DNA of 64,000 bases, from assembly GCA_041667185.1 (NCBI GenBank), contig JBAYFM010000002.1:23432-87431 (forward strand), read 5' to 3'. The stretch is from Patescibacteria group bacterium. Its GTDB lineage: Bacteria; Patescibacteriota; Patescibacteriia; SG8-24. Both the position numbers and the translations under genes were made by a program. Positions 30,853 to 46,979 of the stretch are shown piece after piece; position 1 is the stretch's first letter, and each line of letters begins with the position of its first letter. The notes below the pieces were generated by a model. That model searched no databases and was not told the origin of the DNA. It saw only the letters and a list, made by a program, of their open reading frames with translations.

Positions 30853-30927
30853 TGGCTCCGAGGCTGGGGCTCGAACCCAGAACAAATGGATTAACAGTCC
30901 ATTGCTCTACCATTGAGCTACCTCGGA
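30853..30927 (-). tRNA. tRNA-Asn (anticodon GTT), CCA encoded
   Basis: Manual fold of TCCGAGGTAGCTCAATGGTAGAGCAATGGACTGTTAATCCATTTGTTCTGGGTTCGAGCCCCAGCCTCGGAGCCA. 7-bp acceptor stem, D-arm GCTC/GAGC, anticodon stem ATGGA/TCCAT with loop CTGTTAA, T-arm CTGGG-TTCGAGC-CCCAG. Confidence 0.9.
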
Positions 30928-39385: not shown

Positions 39386-39838
39386 TTAGATATCGGATCG
39401 CGTCATCCGTCCGGATGCAGCAGACTCAAACCTGACCGACAGGGAGACGACCAGGATAATGATGAAGAACACCAGGCCGTAAGCACAGGTTGACAGGCCG
39501 AGTCGTCCGAAGGCGCGAAAACCCGAGGTAAACCAGGTCGCGATCTCGCCGACAGTGAACGAACCGGCGAACATGACGCCCAGGCTGGCGATGAGAGTGT
39601 TCACCGCGACCGGCCATTTGGCCCTAACCCCGAACGCCCAGGCGTAGGCGGTCGAGACGAACATCGTGGAGAACAGGGCGAATCCGAAGTAACAGGCTGG
39701 AAAACCCAGGAAGACCGGGCAGCCTTCCCGGAACGCGCAGACGCCGCTGAAGAATCTTGTGCCGGCCAAGTAGCCGGAGAACATCGTGCCGGCCAAAGTG
39801 ATGGAAAGGGCGAATTTGAGGTAACGGTTGGGGTTCAT
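39386..39838 (-). CDS. Hypothetical 4-TM membrane protein with a CxxxxxxC pair (possible thiol-redox/VKOR-like; uncertain)
   Basis: 150 aa. SGVCAFREGCPVFLGFPACYF is followed by several TM helices. Immediately downstream of copA. Confidence 0.4.
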   Translation of the reverse strand: MNPNRYLKFALSITLAGTMFSGYLAGTRFFSGVCAFREGCPVFLGFPACYFGFALFSTMFVSTAYAWAFGVRAKWPVAVNTLIASLGVMFAGSFTVGEIATWFTSGFRAFGRLGLSTCAYGLVFFIIILVVSLSVRFESAASGRMTRSDI

Positions 39839-39847
39839 ATGTGGTGT

Positions 39848-42800
39848 TTACAGCCGAAAGTCGGCCGAGACGTAATGCAGTTCGTCCATGATCGTGCCGG
39901 TCGCGGGCAGAATGTCGATTATGACCGCGCGGTTGCCGAAGAAGTTGTCGAGCGTATCGCCGACTTTGGTGAACAGTTTTTCACTAATCATCATCTCGGC
40001 CTCGCGGCTGCCGACGGCGACCGGTTGATAGGATTGTCCGCCGAGTTTCAGCGGCGCAAAGCTGTCAAAGCCGATCCGGTCAGCGAAGCTGTCGGGCAGG
40101 GTGCCGGCAGCGATCGGGTAGAAGACCTTGAGTTGGTTGCCGGCGACCGCGAAGCGGAGGTCCGCGACGGCGGTCAGCCGGGCGTAGGTCGCGGCATTCA
40201 GCAGATGGAACCTGTCGAGCAGAGTATCCGTCGGTTCCAGGATGCCAGCGACAGTGATCTGCGGCAGACCGAAGAAGTTCTTGACGACGTCGCCGGGTTT
40301 GGCGAACAGTTTTTCGGCAATCATCATCGCCGCCTCATCGGAGCCGATCAGCATCTCGTTGTCATTGAGAGCCGCGATACCTTGTTTGGCTTTGATGACC
40401 ACCGGGTCCACGGAGTCGATACCGACGAATAATTTCGGGCTGCCTTCAGAGAAACCGATTTTGGCTTTTTGTCTGGCCAGGTAGCTGATGACCGGCACAG
40501 CAGCTTTTAGAGTCGTTTCCGCCTTTGAGTCGACGTTCATGCCGACCGATACAGTGGTCTTGTCCTGGACCGCAGCCACCGCCGGCATCTTGGCCGGCGC
40601 CTCGCCCATCGCCGAACTGAACTGCGCGAACTTCAGGAACAGGAAGCCGAACACCAGCACCATGACTGCCGGAGCGGCCAAGGACAACCAGTTGCGCCGC
40701 CGCGGCCTGAAAGTCTTGAGCAGCAATGAATTGGAGACGACCGAGACCGAACTTAGGGCCATGGCCAGGCCCGCCAGTTCAGGTTTAAGGATCAGTCCGA
40801 GCGCGACGAAGACTCGCGCCGCGATCGGGATGCCGACGACGTTGTAGAACAGGGCAAAGAACATGTTCTGCCGGATCTTGCCCATGGTCTCCCGCGACAG
40901 CTCGATGGCCGTCACCACGTCGTTCAGATCGTTCTTCATGATGACGATACCGCCGGTCTCCATGGCGACGTCCGTGCCGCCGCCCATGGCGATGCCGAGG
41001 TCGGCCTGGGCCAGCGCCGGCGCGTCGTTTATGCCGTCGCCGACCATGGCGACCTTCTTGCCAGCCTCCTGTAGACGTTTCACTTCGCGCGCCTTATCCT
41101 CGGGCAGGACCTCCGCGAGCACCGAGGTGATGCCGACCTGCGAGGCGATGAACCGAGCCGTCCGCTCGTTGTCGCCGGTGATCATCCAGGTCTCGATGCC
41201 CATCTTCTGGAGCTTCTCCACGGCTGCATGCGAGGTCTCTTTCACCTTGTCGGCCACGGCCAAAGCCCCGACGACCCCCTTGACGTCGGCGAGCAGCATG
41301 ACCGTCTTGCCCTGGTCCTCCAGTCTGGCGATCTTGCGCTCGTACAGCGCGATGTCATGTCCGACGATCTCCGTCATCAGCTTGCGGTTGCCGAACCAGT
41401 AAGCAACGCCGGCGACCTTGGCCGTGACGCCGTGTCCGGGGATCGCTTTAAAATCACCCGCTTCTTCCGTTCCGTAAGCCTCCTCTTCGGCGTAGTTGCA
41501 GATGGCTTCGGCGAGCGGGTGTTCGGACAGCTTCTCGATGCTGGCCGCGATGCACACGACCTCGTCCGCCGGCAGACCTCCGAACGTCAGCACTTCGGTG
41601 ACCTCGGGTTTGCCCTTGGTCAGCGTGCCGGTCTTATCGAAGATGACGGCCTTGATCTTGCAGGCCGCCTCGAGCGGTTCGCCGCCCTTGATGAGAATGC
41701 CATGTTCCGCTCCCTTGCCGGTGCCGACCATGATGGCCGTAGGCGTGGCGAGTCCCAAAGCGCAGGGACAGGCGATGACGAGCACCGCCGTGAACGCCAT
41801 GAGCGCGAAGGACAGGCTGGCGCCCAGGAGCAGCCAGACCCCGAAGGTGACCGCGGCGATCACCAGCACGATGGGAACGAACCGGGCTGAGATGCGGTCG
41901 GCGAAGGCCTGGATCGGGGCCTTGGAGCCCTGGGCCTGTTCGATGAGCTGGATGATCTGCGCCAGAGCCGTTTCGGAACCGACGCGCGTGGCGCGGAACT
42001 CGAAACTGCCGTTCTTGTTGATCGTGGCGCCGATGACCTTGTCGCCGGCGCCCTTATCCACCGGCAAGCTCTCGCCGGTGATCATCGATTCGTCGACGGC
42101 CGAGGAACCGGAGACGATCTCGCCGTCCACCGGCACCTTCTCGCCGGGACGGACGATGACGATGTCGCCCTTCACGACCTGATCGGTCGGGATGTCGACC
42201 ATCGAGCTGCCGCGCTTGACTCGCGCCGTCTTGGCCTGCAGCCCCATGAGCCTTTTCAGCGCCTCCGAGGTCTTGCTCTTGGTGCGCGTCTCGAGCCATT
42301 TGCCCAGCATGACGAAGGTGATGAGGAACGCCGACGTCTCGAAGTAGAGTTCCGGTATCTTCGCGCCGCCGAGGCCGATCAGGCTGTTGTTGGCTAGGGC
42401 GTAGAGGACGAAGTTGACGACGCTGTAGACGAAGGCTGTCGTCGTGCCGATGGCGATGAGGCTGTCCATGTTGAATGTCCTCATCTTCAGGCTGGACCAC
42501 ATGCCGCGGTAGAAGCCTGCACCGATGACGAACTGGACCGGCGCCGCGAGGACGAACGATACGAGCCCGGCCCATGGCCACAGGAGGGCGCGTCCGGGCA
42601 CCCAAGCAAAGAAGTCGAAGAGCATGAACCAGAGCATCGGCAGGCTCAAGACCAGGCCAACCAGGAACCGGTTGCGGTAAGAGGCGGTTTCGGCCGCTCG
42701 CCGGCGGCGTTCTTCTTCGGGATCGGTCTTGTCAGCAACCTGGGCGCGGTAGCCGGTCTTCCGGATGCGCTCGACCAGGGCGTTGACGTCCGTCATCTGC

Positions 42801-43561
42801 CCGTCAAAGACAACGTGCGCCTTTTCGGCCGCGAAGTTGACGTAGGCTTCCTTGACCCCCTTTTCATTCCGTAAGCTCCGTTCGATGAGGCCGGCGCAGG
42901 ACGAGCAGTGCATCCCGCTGATCGTGAAAGTCGTCCGGCGCTCGCCCGCGGCCTCTTCCGGCCGCTGAACCGGCGCTTCTTGAAGTTCGCGGCTCTTTGA
43001 AGCCGGTTCAACGATGGTGTGGCCGGGATCGCCGTCCAAAAGCAGGCCGGAATGAAGCACCCGCGCCAGGCTTTCGACCAATTTTTCGAGTTCGGGAGCG
43101 CCTTTAGGGTATTCGATCGCGCTCTGCCGCCGCGCAGTGATCTTGCCGGAGAAATACGGGCGGCCGGCATCATCGCCGCGCACTTCGCCCTCGGCTTCGG
43201 TCACGGTCTCGTAACTGAGTTTCAATCTGGCACCCCGGCTGACTTCGTCCGCCTCCGCGCGCTGGTCCGCCGGACTTTCCGGTCGAACCGCGGCGACCGC
43301 CGGATCGGGAACAACAACCAGTGGCGCTGCGGCGACCGCTACGCCCGCAGTCATGCTCTCCGAGACGATGCCGTACCCAAGATCCTTGATAGCGGCCTTG
43401 ATGGCCGTGGTCGACGTCCCCTCGTTGGCTTCGACGCGACACTCGCCAGTGGACGCGTCGACACTGACGCCGCGAACCCCGGCCAAGCCGCTCAACGCCT
43501 CGCGGATCAGGGTCTCGCAGGAGCTGCAGTGCAGGCCGCTGAGTTTGAGATCAATGGTCAT
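39848..43561 (-). CDS. copA: Copper-translocating P1B-type ATPase CopA with two N-terminal HMA domains and an unusual ~310-aa C-terminal extension (extra TM plus two tandem repeats)
   Basis: 1237 aa continuous [14 protein letters not shown] and [11 protein letters not shown] (HMA x2), TGES, CPC in TM6 ([13 protein letters not shown]), [17 protein letters not shown]. After the last canonical TM (...[10 protein letters not shown]) the protein continues with a further hydrophobic helix and two ~45-aa repeats ([43 protein letters not shown] and [43 protein letters not shown]). Confidence 0.9.
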
Positions 43562-43565
43562 ATCT

Positions 43566-43775
43566 TTAAGCCTCGCGGACCTGATAACCCTTCTCCGCGA
43601 GTTTGGCGCGGATGTCTGCGAGGGCGACCGGCTGTCCGGCGGTGACCTTGATCAGGCCGCTGGACTCGTCGGTCAACACCTGTATGACCCCGCTCATTTT
43701 CATGAGAAGCAGGTTGATCATTTTGGAGCAGGCCGAGCATTTAATGTTGGTGACGGTGAATTGCTGTTGATACAT
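43566..43775 (-). CDS. copZ: Copper chaperone CopZ (single HMA domain)
   Basis: Start at [17 protein letters not shown] (M-x-C-x-x-C). 70-aa ferredoxin-like HMA fold ending ...[12 protein letters not shown]. Confidence 0.7.
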
Positions 43776-43800
43776 ATGGATATTAGATTCATCGAGGCCA

Positions 43801-45552
43801 TTATTCGACATGGATCGTGGCCCGCCACATGCCCATGGCGCAGGTGACGTCGTAGTCGCCGGGTTCGGTCGGAATGAACTCGATGACCGTCGGGTCGGGA
43901 TAATTTTCGCGGACGCCGATGCCGAGATCCCGATTCACGAAAGCGACCATGCAGCCGGCGGGCGGCGCGTCCGGCGTGATAGTCCACTCGACCGGCTGGC
44001 CGGCCTTGACGGTGAATTCGTTCGGGGACAGGCCGTAATTATCGCGCGCGTCGATCCGCTGCACCCCGGCGTCGGTTTTGACCGAACCGGTGACCGGAGC
44101 CTTGGGCTGTGCGCCACCGCCGCAGCCGCAGCCGCCTCCGCCGCAGGAACTGCCCGAAACGGGCGGCGGCGCCGGTGACACAGCCGTCGGACCGGCCGCC
44201 GTCGCACCGTTCGAGGCCCCGTCCGTGACATTGAAGACGCCCCGATACATGCCCATGCTGCAGGAGAACGGGATGTCGCCGGCGCTGGTCGGCGTGAATT
44301 CGATGATGTTCTCCCCCTTCCTCAGCTGCCGGGAGATCTTGAACGCCGGCATCGAGATCGAGGCCGCGCAGGATAGTTCAGTTTCCGAAGTGATGATCCA
44401 CCTGACCGGCACGCCTTTCCGGACCGAAAAAACGTTGGGCGCGTAGCCGCCGGCCTTCTGGGTCATGCGCACGGTCTGGACCCCGTTCTGTTCGGTCGCG
44501 GCGGTCGCGGGTCGTTTCAGCTGCGCCGCGGCAGGATCGAAACCGGCGAGCGCCAGGCCATTGCCGAAATTGAGCACTCCGAAGATCAGCACGGCGAGAC
44601 CGACGACCGCGTAGAACAACTTGGCCGCGGCCCCTTTGATGACCGAGGTCAGTCCGCCGATGCCGAGCAGGGCCGGCGCGGTACCCAGCGCGAATAGAGC
44701 CATCACCGCGCCGCCGCGCCAGAAACTGCCGGTGCTGACGGCGTAGAGCTGCGTGGCCTGAGTGAAGCCGCAGGGCAGGAAGAAGGTCAGGGCCCCGGTG
44801 ACCAGCGCCGATGAATGGCTGTACTCCTTGTTGTGGTGGTTCAGACCGAGTCGGCGGCCGATCCAGGAAGGCAGCATCGGTCCGCCCTCCTTGAGCCGTG
44901 GCGACAGGCCGGACAATTTCAGCCCCATGACGATCATGACGGCGCCGACCGCCAAAGTCAGGACCGACAGCAGGCCGTTCGAGAGCTTGAAGACGCTGCC
45001 GGCCGCCCCGAGCAGGCCGCCGAAGAAGGCGTAGCCGGACACGCGTCCCGCGTTGAAGTAGAGGTGCGGCCGGAATTTCTCCCAGGCGGTGGCTTCCGGA
45101 TGACTTTCGGCGTGGCTCGCGGACAGTCCCAGGATGAGGCCGCCGACCAGAGCCATGCAGGTGGAGATGCCAGCGATAAGACCCACGACCAGAGCCATGG
45201 CCAGAGAGACGTTCTTCGTGTCGACGCTGAATCCCAGGGACCCCAGGGCGCGAACGGCGAAATAGAGTACGCCGACGATCAGGACAGCCTTGCCTATATT
45301 GCGGTAATCCTCGTGGTTGTCGGAAATCCAGGGCAACGGTCCGGAACTACCGATCTCATAACCGCTTTCCTTGACCGCCCGGATGATTTCCTCACGGCTC
45401 GGTATGTCGGCGCCATGACGGATCGATGCCTCGCCTTTCCGATAATCGACTTTGACATGATCGACCCCCTGAACTTGCCCAATCTTATCCTCGAGCAACA
45501 GTTCGCAGGAGCGACAATGCATTCCTTTAATTGGTATAACAAAATGCTTCAT
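43801..45552 (-). CDS. HMA-domain membrane protein of the TauE/SafE / DsbD-TM type, with two C-terminal cupredoxin-like Cys-x-MGM(Y/W)R domains separated by a Cys/Gly-rich linker
   Basis: N-terminal HMA (GMHCRSCELLLED), then ~8 TM helices containing a conserved Cys pair region (GISTCMALVGGLILG ... FFLPCGFTQATQ). The C-terminus carries two repeats ending FSCSMGMYRGVFNV and VTCAMGMWRATIHV, separated by GSSCGGGGCGCGGG. Confidence 0.65.
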   Translation of the reverse strand: MKHFVIPIKGMHCRSCELLLEDKIGQVQGVDHVKVDYRKGEASIRHGADIPSREEIIRAVKESGYEIGSSGPLPWISDNHEDYRNIGKAVLIVGVLYFAVRALGSLGFSVDTKNVSLAMALVVGLIAGISTCMALVGGLILGLSASHAESHPEATAWEKFRPHLYFNAGRVSGYAFFGGLLGAAGSVFKLSNGLLSVLTLAVGAVMIVMGLKLSGLSPRLKEGGPMLPSWIGRRLGLNHHNKEYSHSSALVTGALTFFLPCGFTQATQLYAVSTGSFWRGGAVMALFALGTAPALLGIGGLTSVIKGAAAKLFYAVVGLAVLIFGVLNFGNGLALAGFDPAAAQLKRPATAATEQNGVQTVRMTQKAGGYAPNVFSVRKGVPVRWIITSETELSCAASISMPAFKISRQLRKGENIIEFTPTSAGDIPFSCSMGMYRGVFNVTDGASNGATAAGPTAVSPAPPPVSGSSCGGGGCGCGGGAQPKAPVTGSVKTDAGVQRIDARDNYGLSPNEFTVKAGQPVEWTITPDAPPAGCMVAFVNRDLGIGVRENYPDPTVIEFIPTEPGDYDVTCAMGMWRATIHVE

Positions 45553-46057: not shown

Positions 46058-46333
46058 TCATTTCTTGCGCCAAACGTTGCAGACGCGCAATATTTCCTTG
46101 ATGAACCGGTCGCGTTCACCCTTGCTCTTCGACGCCAAGGCGACGCCGCACGTGCGAAGATGACTTTCGAGGATCAGGTTGTTGGCCTGCTGCAGGATGC
46201 CGATCACGGCGTTGTTCTGCTGGATGATGTCCATGCAATAACGATCGGCTTCCGCCATCTTAATGACGGTGTCCAGCTGGCCGCTGGCTTTTTGCAGGCC
46301 TTTTTTCACCTGACCGGCGTATGGTTCGATCAT
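46058..46333 (-). CDS. csoR: CsoR/RcnR-family metal-sensing transcriptional repressor (copper-sensitive operon repressor)
   Basis: 91 aa. The DUF156 helical bundle with the conserved C-H-C ligand set (RYCMDIIQQNNAVIGIL...ESHLRTCG). Confidence 0.8.
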   Translation of the reverse strand: MIEPYAGQVKKGLQKASGQLDTVIKMAEADRYCMDIIQQNNAVIGILQQANNLILESHLRTCGVALASKSKGERDRFIKEILRVCNVWRKK

Positions 46334-46891: not shown

Positions 46892-46979
46892 TGGCGGAGG
46901 GGGAGGGATTCGAACCCTCGATACCTTGCGGTATACTCGCTTTCCAAGCGAGCGCACTCGACCACTATGCGACCCCTCC
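46892..46979 (-). tRNA. tRNA-Ser (anticodon GGA), long variable arm, CCA encoded
   Basis: Manual fold of GGAGGGGTCGCATAGTGGTCGAGTGCGCTCGCTTGGAAAGCGAGTATACCGCAAGGTATCGAGGGTTCGAATCCCTCCCCCTCCGCCA. Acceptor GGAGGGG/CCCCTCC, anticodon stem CTCGC/GCGAG with loop TTGGAAA, 16-nt variable arm, T-arm GAGGG-TTCGAAT-CCCTC. Confidence 0.85.

Follow-up and report, generated by a model that had tools for sequence, protein, structure and literature searches.

Pumps of the CopA family, the Cu(I)-exporting P1B-type ATPases, have a cytoplasmic C-terminus. To our knowledge, the exit of Cu(I) from a P1B pump and its recipient are understood only for Escherichia coli (CopA to CusF), and we know of no beta-like accessory subunit described for this class. 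The eight-helix transmembrane (TM) topology of CopA is summarised in PMC7558416, and E. coli CopA passes Cu(I) directly to periplasmic CusF, whose site is formed by His and two Met (PMC7558416). Here we describe a copA gene in 64,000 nucleotides of DNA from a Patescibacteria group bacterium (assembly GCA_041667185.1, contig JBAYFM010000002.1, positions 23,432 to 87,431 of the forward strand; this whole stretch is called the window, and all coordinates refer to it). As a pump the protein is ordinary; what is new is the accessory module joined to its C-terminus and the architecture that results. We propose that this is a single real gene whose module belongs to a family dedicated to CopA, lies on the outer side of the membrane, has a MacB-related fold and would capture Cu(I) and hand it on. 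The anatomical and genomic part of this proposal is close to certain, and the proposal taken whole could fall either way. The gene and its parts are as follows.

39848..43561, minus strand: CopA with C-terminal, predicted extracytoplasmic module, complete open reading frame (ORF) of 1237 aa, stop codon TAA at 39848-39850
43364..43555, minus strand: HMA domain 1, aa 3-66, with GLHCSSC (Pfam HMA, which matches two stretches of the protein, and sequence)
42749..42931, minus strand: HMA domain 2, aa 211-271, with GMHCSSC (the best Pfam HMA stretch, 211-271)
40712..42694, minus strand: ATPase core of the P1B-1 class, aa 290-950, comprising 8 TM helices (Pfam, NCBIfam and motifs)
40694..40717, minus strand: basic cytoplasmic loop KTFRPRRR between M6 and TM9, aa 949-956 (sequence)
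40619..40693, minus strand: ninth TM helix (TM9), aa 957-981 (Kyte-Doolittle 2.29, predicted inside to outside)
40484..40618, minus strand: linker, aa 982-1026, 3 Met in 45 residues, opening with the family-typical FSS.M motif (sequence)
40169..40483, minus strand: repeat 1 of the predicted extracytoplasmic domain, aa 1027-1131 (AlphaFold2 model, conservation and repeat alignment)
40196-40354, minus strand: conserved core of repeat 1, aa 1070-1122, G..EA.MM..E...GD...FFG...G.L..T.T..D..H
39851..40168, minus strand: repeat 2 of the same domain, aa 1132-1237 (AlphaFold2 model, conservation and repeat alignment)
39866-40021, minus strand: conserved core of repeat 2, aa 1181-1232 (conservation)

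The 1237-aa reading frame at 39848-43561 (minus strand) is uninterrupted up to its terminal TAA. The core matches the Pfam families E1-E2_ATPase (E 1.4e-62) and Hydrolase (E 9.8e-38) and passes the NCBIfam model ATPase-IB1_Cu with 622 bits against a cutoff of 397, whereas the CopA equivalog model (NF007952) gives 668.5 bits against a cutoff of 1316 and fails, so that only subfamily models are passed. All P-type core motifs are present (TGES at 495, DKTGT at 642, SEHPL at 679 and GDGINDAP at 841), as are the motifs that supply Cu(I) ligands within the membrane (CPC at 598 in M4, YN at 906 in M5 and MALSS, of the MxxSS type, at 934 in M6). Judged by these signatures, aa 1-950 is a complete canonical Cu(I) P1B-1 ATPase; the core is a member of the class and the architecture is a variant of it. 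Instead of stopping on the cytoplasmic side soon after M6 with eight TM helices, the protein has a ninth helix and 256 residues beyond it. Between the two HMA domains lies a spacer of ~140 aa without a Pfam match (CopA aa 67-210; 42932-43363, minus strand), and fused homologues are often of similar length (~1200 aa, compared with ~1020 aa in single-HMA forms).

Pfam and NCBIfam models of CopA and of P1B ATPases stop at aa ~949-954, and the protein continues in frame for ~287 aa (aa 951-1237, nt 39851-40711). The original prediction, made from the sequence alone, had recognised this in-frame extension but set its length at ~310 aa, and its start coordinate of 40790 still lies within M6, the last canonical helix. 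The short basic loop behind M6 leads directly into TM9; the junction motif F(R/K)PG(K/R)(K/R)N(Y/W) is kept in other fusions, and the N-terminal anchor helix of a standalone homologue, the equivalent of TM9, was modelled as a helix. Since the C-terminus of CopA is cytoplasmic and positive charges stand ahead of TM9, the protein past TM9 would therefore lie outside the cell, and TM9 is predicted to place the linker and a 211-aa domain on the outer face of the membrane. Both the additional hydrophobic helix and the location of the remainder on the opposite side of the membrane had been foreseen, and the position (aa 957-981), hydrophobicity and preceding KTFRPRRR of TM9 agree with this.

Comparison of the two halves of the 211-aa soluble domain gave 39% identity over 80 aa (BLASTP E 2e-14). 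The tandem repeats that had been noticed from the sequence are thus real, but the repeated unit in the AlphaFold model comprises ~105 aa rather than ~45 aa. Six fused copA genes carry a single repeat, covering positions 2-107 or ~100-211 of the hidden Markov model (HMM) of the domain (L056, L058, L065, L069, L070 and L071). Given these single-repeat fusions, the ~105-aa unit may work alone or through dimerisation of the pump.

The fusion is reproduced in an independent assembly. Contig L005, from Joint Genome Institute (JGI) sample 3300037810, shares 99.8% identity with 9.5 kb of the window; 7 single-nucleotide polymorphisms and, within the ATPase core, a scaffold N-gap set the two apart, and no difference falls in the junction or the extension. 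The domain and the CopA core share one ORF in 44 of the 68 loci from GTDB species-representative genomes, and in seven full-length fused representatives of the protein library the module comes after HMA, E1-E2 and Hydrolase domains. In a short contig (L006), from an organism that uses TGA as a sense codon, a single frame leads from the last part of M6 (VVTNSLLLKNFHPKRMN) through TM9 into the domain. Together with L038, L061, L063 and L066, this contig is translated properly only with TGA as sense (a code of the 4/25 type, as for example in Absconditabacterales/SR1), and the fusion is therefore also present in recoded lineages of the candidate phyla radiation (CPR). Contig L003 (1-1919) contains at least two frameshifts in copA, a 1-nt shift exactly at the CopA/TM9 junction and another inside the core; because of the latter we regard this contig as probably a product of indel-prone sequencing, the alternative being a pseudogene. 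A frameshift or fusion artefact, which the original prediction had asked to be checked, was ruled out by the identity of L005 across the junction and by the 44 in-frame fusions elsewhere.

To define the family, the extension alone was compared with Pfam, NCBIfam and the PDB sequences, and no meaningful match was obtained in any of the three; matches to Maf (E 0.12) and to an anti-sigma factor (E 0.09) were taken as chance. A word-indexed search of 5.8 billion proteins returned 7 matches to the domain, and an exhaustive HMM search of 1.84 billion cluster representatives returned 199 at E<=1e-3 (173 at <=1e-10), each standing for a cluster at 50% identity. Among the best 154 of these 199, at least 25 are visibly joined to the C-terminus of CopA, with the common junction motif SNSLLL(R/K).F(R/K)PG(K/R)(K/R)N(Y/W).S..AP..M, and ~76 are proteins of 245-280 aa with an N-terminal anchor helix. 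The count of fusions is a minimum, as the apparent standalone proteins P0002 and P0004 are fusions cut by the gene caller. Whether the extension is common and already annotated had been raised beforehand: it recurs among CPR bacteria, yet neither Pfam nor NCBIfam has a model for it. In the literature searched we found no description of a P1B ATPase that combines a ninth helix with a MacB-like domain outside the cytoplasm, nor of the standalone archaeal module gene. Some members carry further regions: in P0115 (aa 377-638) the module is lengthened by 262 aa with H.HP/HTHPM motifs, and in a Woesearchaeota locus (L046, 5875-7674) a beta-propeller-like repeat region of ~350 aa is added to it.

In every locus long enough to tell, the domain is fused to copA or adjoins it on the same strand, as its proposed tie to CopA had implied; loci that lack a CopA context are contig-end fragments only. 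All 44 fused loci are bacterial, and their labels are almost all of the CPR/Patescibacteria type (Saccharibacteria, Parcubacteria, Microgenomates, Doudna-, Peri-, Falkow-, Collier-, Shapiro-, Morani- and Magasanikbacteria, and Absconditabacterales); the few labelled 'Gammaproteobacteria/Pseudomonadales/Atribacteria' bear unverified labels that may be binning or label errors. The 19 archaeal loci (Woesearchaeota, Micrarchaeota, metagenome-assembled genomes labelled 'Methanosarcinales' and the cultured Methanoculleus palmolei DSM 4273) contain a separate gene for a TM helix plus the domain, which shares the strand of the CopA core and lies 126-620 nt away from it, in the order copA followed by this gene, or this gene followed by copZ and copA. 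The 275-aa module gene of M. palmolei overlaps the stop codon of copA and is followed by a cupredoxin-like gene (146 aa); upstream of copA in the same genome (L047 2627-3649, CP137641) lies a gene for a 340-aa protein in which an HMA domain is combined with a membrane region rich in Met (MTGMMTGMTFGMAGG...MGVMEGMMGGLMAGTMGAM). Because the module is linked exclusively to copA, being fused to it in some genomes and separate in others, this genetic linkage and the alternation of the two forms show that the module works with CopA.

The fold of the outer domain was examined by structure prediction. MacB_PCD (Pfam PF12704) is the periplasmic Porter/Sabre domain of MacB, LolC/LolE, YbbP, HrtB, YknZ and FtsX-like permeases. 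An AlphaFold2 model of the 211-aa domain, built from a seven-sequence alignment (pLDDT 88.4, pTM 0.82), consists of two equivalent units, each with a hairpin and strands followed by strand-helix-strand-strand-short helix-strand; a second model, of the archaeal standalone protein P0006 (31% identical), reached a pLDDT of 84.7. When the window domain was compared with the PDB by Foldseek, the first twelve matches and most of the top thirty were periplasmic domains of type VII ATP-binding cassette (ABC) transporters, namely LolC/LolE, MacB, HrtB, YbbP and a Porphyromonas gingivalis permease domain, with probabilities up to 0.99, E values of 0.009-0.1 and template-modelling scores of 0.28-0.36 over ~120-130 aligned columns. 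With P0006, the first 43 matches belonged to the same class (best E 3.9e-3, probability 1.00), and the periplasmic domain of YknZ was also among the top matches over the two models. Matches to a double-psi beta-barrel and to p97-N were disregarded (probability <=0.25).

Profile searches point to the same relatives. Pfam MacB_PCD was matched by 12 of the 72 members scanned singly, with a best E of 7e-6 and scores, where listed, of 14.5-24.1 bits, all below the gathering score of 27 bits; either repeat core aligns to positions ~119-198 of the 207 in that profile. The window domain itself gave no match to Pfam MacB_PCD at E<=10, and the best PDB profile match was the FtsX-type permease YtrF (E 0.056). 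Like MacB_PCD, the domain is predicted to face outward behind a TM anchor, and each repeat core resembles the C-terminal beta-alpha-beta part of MacB_PCD, with a strand, a 'G..EA..M..LF' helix, 'GD', a strand and a 'V.GiL' strand. Unlike MacB with its Porter domain and Sabre insert, it appears to be built from two copies of a ~105-aa unit; and whereas FtsX-type domains sit between TM1 and TM2 of a four-TM permease that works with an ABC ATPase, the present domain is C-terminal, has CopA or a lone anchor helix as its N-terminal neighbour, is followed by no TM helix and no FtsX three-helix bundle, and has no ABC partner. Conserved E..MM..E and T.T..D..H motifs of its own further set the family apart, and global superposition is poor (template-modelling score 0.2-0.36). 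We regard the modelled domain as remotely related, in rearranged form, to the Porter unit of MacB-type domains. We do not count it as a member of MacB_PCD, because the FtsX bundle is missing, the Pfam scores are below threshold and the superposition is poor.

Conservation was assessed over 86 full-length domains, in which each repeat keeps the pattern G..EA.MM..E...G(D)...FFG...G.L..T.T..D..H. In repeat 1 (numbering of the window domain) the residues and the number of domains retaining them are G47, 84; E50, 79; A51, 75; M53, 66; M54, 80; E57, 69; T85, 83; D90, 85; and H93, 76. The corresponding counts in repeat 2 are E161, 80; M165, 79; T195, 78; D200, 86; and H203, 72. Specific to the family are E..M(M)..E on the helix and T.T..D..H behind the long strand. 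The domain is essentially free of Cys and has one His per repeat. Over 83 members, Met makes up 6.0% of the linker that follows the anchor helix, often in an FSS.M motif at the surface of the membrane. Outside the cytoplasm copper is usually bound through Met, His, Asp and Glu, and the conservation pattern suggests that E, M, D and H of each repeat, together with the Met residues of the linker, are candidate Cu ligands.

The operon in the window has the order csoR, a 173-aa ORF, a gene for HMA-DsbD_2-2xCupredoxin_1, copZ and copA with its extension, and the backbone from the HMA-DsbD_2-cupredoxin gene through copZ to the fused copA matches that of CPR loci; this shared gene order points to a high-GC genome of Patescibacteria type as the probable origin of the window. 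The neighbouring genes are as follows.

43566..43811, minus strand: CopZ-like HMA protein, 81 aa, directly upstream of copA (Pfam HMA, E 3.9e-4)
43801..45552, minus strand: 583-aa protein with HMA, a DsbD_2 (CcdA-like) membrane domain and two Cupredoxin_1 domains (Pfam)
46058..46333, minus strand: copper-sensing repressor of the CsoR type, 91 aa, first in the locus (Pfam Trns_repr_metal, matched by the identical gene of L005)

CopZ-like homologues stand upstream of fused copA in 27 loci, and CsoR homologues occur in 14. At least 34 bacterial loci have a full-length homologue of the 583-aa protein immediately upstream of copZ-copA (E down to 1e-162), and the two Cupredoxin_1 domains of that protein carry C.MGM motifs, which suggests that it is a partner of the pump for copper and thiol-redox chemistry in the envelope. 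A gene with a Cupredoxin_1-like domain was found in 54 of 76 loci, 18 of them archaeal. Downstream of copA, 9 nt away, a gene at 39386-39838 (minus strand) encodes a predicted 4-TM protein of 150 aa that contains several Cys (GVCAFREGCP, FPACYFG) and has no Pfam match. Neither this gene nor a downstream 160-aa gene was retained as a conserved partner, homologues having been found in only 1 other locus (L064, for the 150-aa protein) and 0 others, respectively. A tRNA-Ser(GGA) gene (46892-46979, minus strand) lies just past the csoR end of the cop locus and a tRNA-Asn(GTT) gene (30853-30927, minus strand) farther away; beyond these two tRNAs, an Rfam scan of the whole window yielded no family at gathering score.

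The most likely function of the module is that of a tethered Cu(I) acceptor or hand-off site, a proposal whose chances we put at even or slightly below; we favour it because of the precedent of CopA and CusF, the presence of Met, His, Asp and Glu as usual ligands, and the co-conserved cupredoxin genes. In this mechanism, the ninth TM helix and the Met-containing linker would present the 211-aa domain at the outer face of the membrane, tethered beside M6, which bears Cu ligands, at the exit of the pump. Cu(I) would be taken on release by the Met-rich linker and by the presumably exposed E..M(M)..E and T.T..D..H of each repeat, and would then be cleared from the membrane surface or given to the cupredoxin-domain proteins of the operon. 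In cells without an outer membrane, the module would thus fill the role that CusF has for E. coli CopA, as a fusion in CPR/Patescibacteria-type bacteria and, in DPANN archaea and Methanoculleus, as a TM-anchored protein with its own gene next to copA.

Several observations weigh against this proposal. The Foldseek matches are weak overall (E 0.004-0.1, template-modelling score 0.2-0.36), and the conserved G, A, GD and V.G are generic determinants of the MacB_PCD fold. The best-conserved Met (M54/M165) probably faces the core, as judged by helical periodicity, and occupies the place of a Leu in the 'lAkkL' helix of MacB. Enrichment of Met in the linker is only ~2.5-fold, and the six fused loci with one repeat indicate that a two-repeat site is not obligatory. 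No metallochaperone family (CusF, CopC/PcoC, PCuAC, Sco, CupA or CopZ/HMA) appeared among the matches of the domain in Pfam, NCBIfam, PDB or Foldseek searches. A periplasmic metallochaperone, one of the roles originally suggested, is accordingly not what the comparisons recovered: the domain bears no likeness to a known metallochaperone fold, and its only relatives are the weak ones of the MacB/LolCE type.

An alternative that we consider unlikely, yet the strongest of the competing explanations, is that the module is a structural or regulatory accessory resembling a beta subunit, which binds no metal and whose TM9 packs on M5/M6 to stabilise, assemble or gate the pump; by analogy with the periplasmic domains of MacB, it might relay the E1/E2 movements of the pump outward. 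The single-pass anchor with an extracytoplasmic domain, occurring fused or as an adjacent gene, would suit such a subunit, as would the very short conserved M6-TM9 loop that forces TM9 beside M6, the lack of Cys and the single His per repeat, and the fact that the only detectable relatives are the mechanotransmitting domains of MacB/LolCE. On the other hand, P1B ATPases normally function without a subunit of this kind and most CopA proteins lack one, the family-specific residues Met, His, Asp and Glu typically serve as copper ligands outside the cytoplasm, the linker is Met-rich, and genes with cupredoxin domains are co-conserved with the module. A combined version, in which P1B pumps of CPR bacteria and of DPANN and methanogenic archaea have a dedicated outer subunit derived from a MacB/FtsX-type domain, with TM9 on M6 coupling the E1/E2 cycle to Cu(I) capture and hand-off to cupredoxins, seems to us improbable.

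Slightly more improbable still is a module that binds no copper itself and serves as a docking platform for another envelope protein, candidates being the operon's own protein with cupredoxin domains, or a component of the surface layer or of host contact. Extracytoplasmic domains of the MacB family often bind partners (LolC-LolA and FtsX-EnvC are general knowledge), Cupredoxin_1 proteins are encoded in most of the loci as counted above, and some members have additional extracytoplasmic domains, beta-propeller-like in L046 and containing His/Met in P0115; yet the cupredoxin partner is absent from about a quarter of the loci, in part through contig ends, and the conserved residues resemble ligands more than an interface. 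Finally, an assembly or sequencing artefact, or a functionless decaying remnant of a neighbouring FtsX/MacB-type permease gene, to which the 1-nt frameshift exactly at the junction in L003 and the existence of the module as a separate archaeal gene might point, is effectively refuted by the error-prone nature of L003 with its second frameshift within the copA core, the unbroken ORF of the window and its identical counterpart in an independent assembly, the 44 in-frame fusions in other genomes, the strong conservation among sequences only 25-45% identical, and the finding that in no member does an FtsX TM bundle follow the domain.

Collectively, these findings describe a conserved module of ~200 clusters, carried by ultra-small bacteria and by archaea, whose strict genetic tie to copA holds in both of these domains of life and which is a candidate exit-side partner of the pump. 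It represents a new domain architecture for the P-type ATPase superfamily and a new context, outside ABC transporters, for a MacB-type periplasmic fold, and one of its carriers, M. palmolei DSM 4273, is available in culture. In comparison with CopA of E. coli, Archaeoglobus fulgidus and Legionella pneumophila, aa 1-950 have the same plan (N-terminal HMA, 8 TM helices, TGES, CPC, DKTGT, HP, GDGxNDxP, YN and MxxSS), and the operon with copZ and csoR is likewise that of CopA systems. Whereas the canonical protein has a cytoplasmic end a few residues after M6, here TM9 and a region of ~255 aa that is predicted to be extracytoplasmic follow; the unannotated spacer of ~140 aa between the HMA domains is a further difference.

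The module would resemble CusF and the membrane-tethered CupA in its role, as proposed only, of accepting copper at the membrane, directly from CopA or for it. Its candidate ligands are likewise of the Met/His type, not Cys, and its membrane tether recalls that of CupA. The folds, in contrast, are unrelated, CusF being an OB-type barrel and CupA a cupredoxin, and CupA acts on the cytoplasmic side whereas the present module is predicted to lie outside. With the beta subunit of Na,K-ATPase, KdpC and CDC50, the module shares a single-pass or few-pass anchor and an extracytoplasmic domain dedicated to one pump, and in archaea it is, as in those systems, the product of a separate gene. It has no sequence or fold relationship to these subunits and, unlike them, is covalently fused to the pump in bacteria; if it truly places a MacB-style mechanotransmission element on a P-type ATPase, it would be the first 'beta subunit' of the P1B class.

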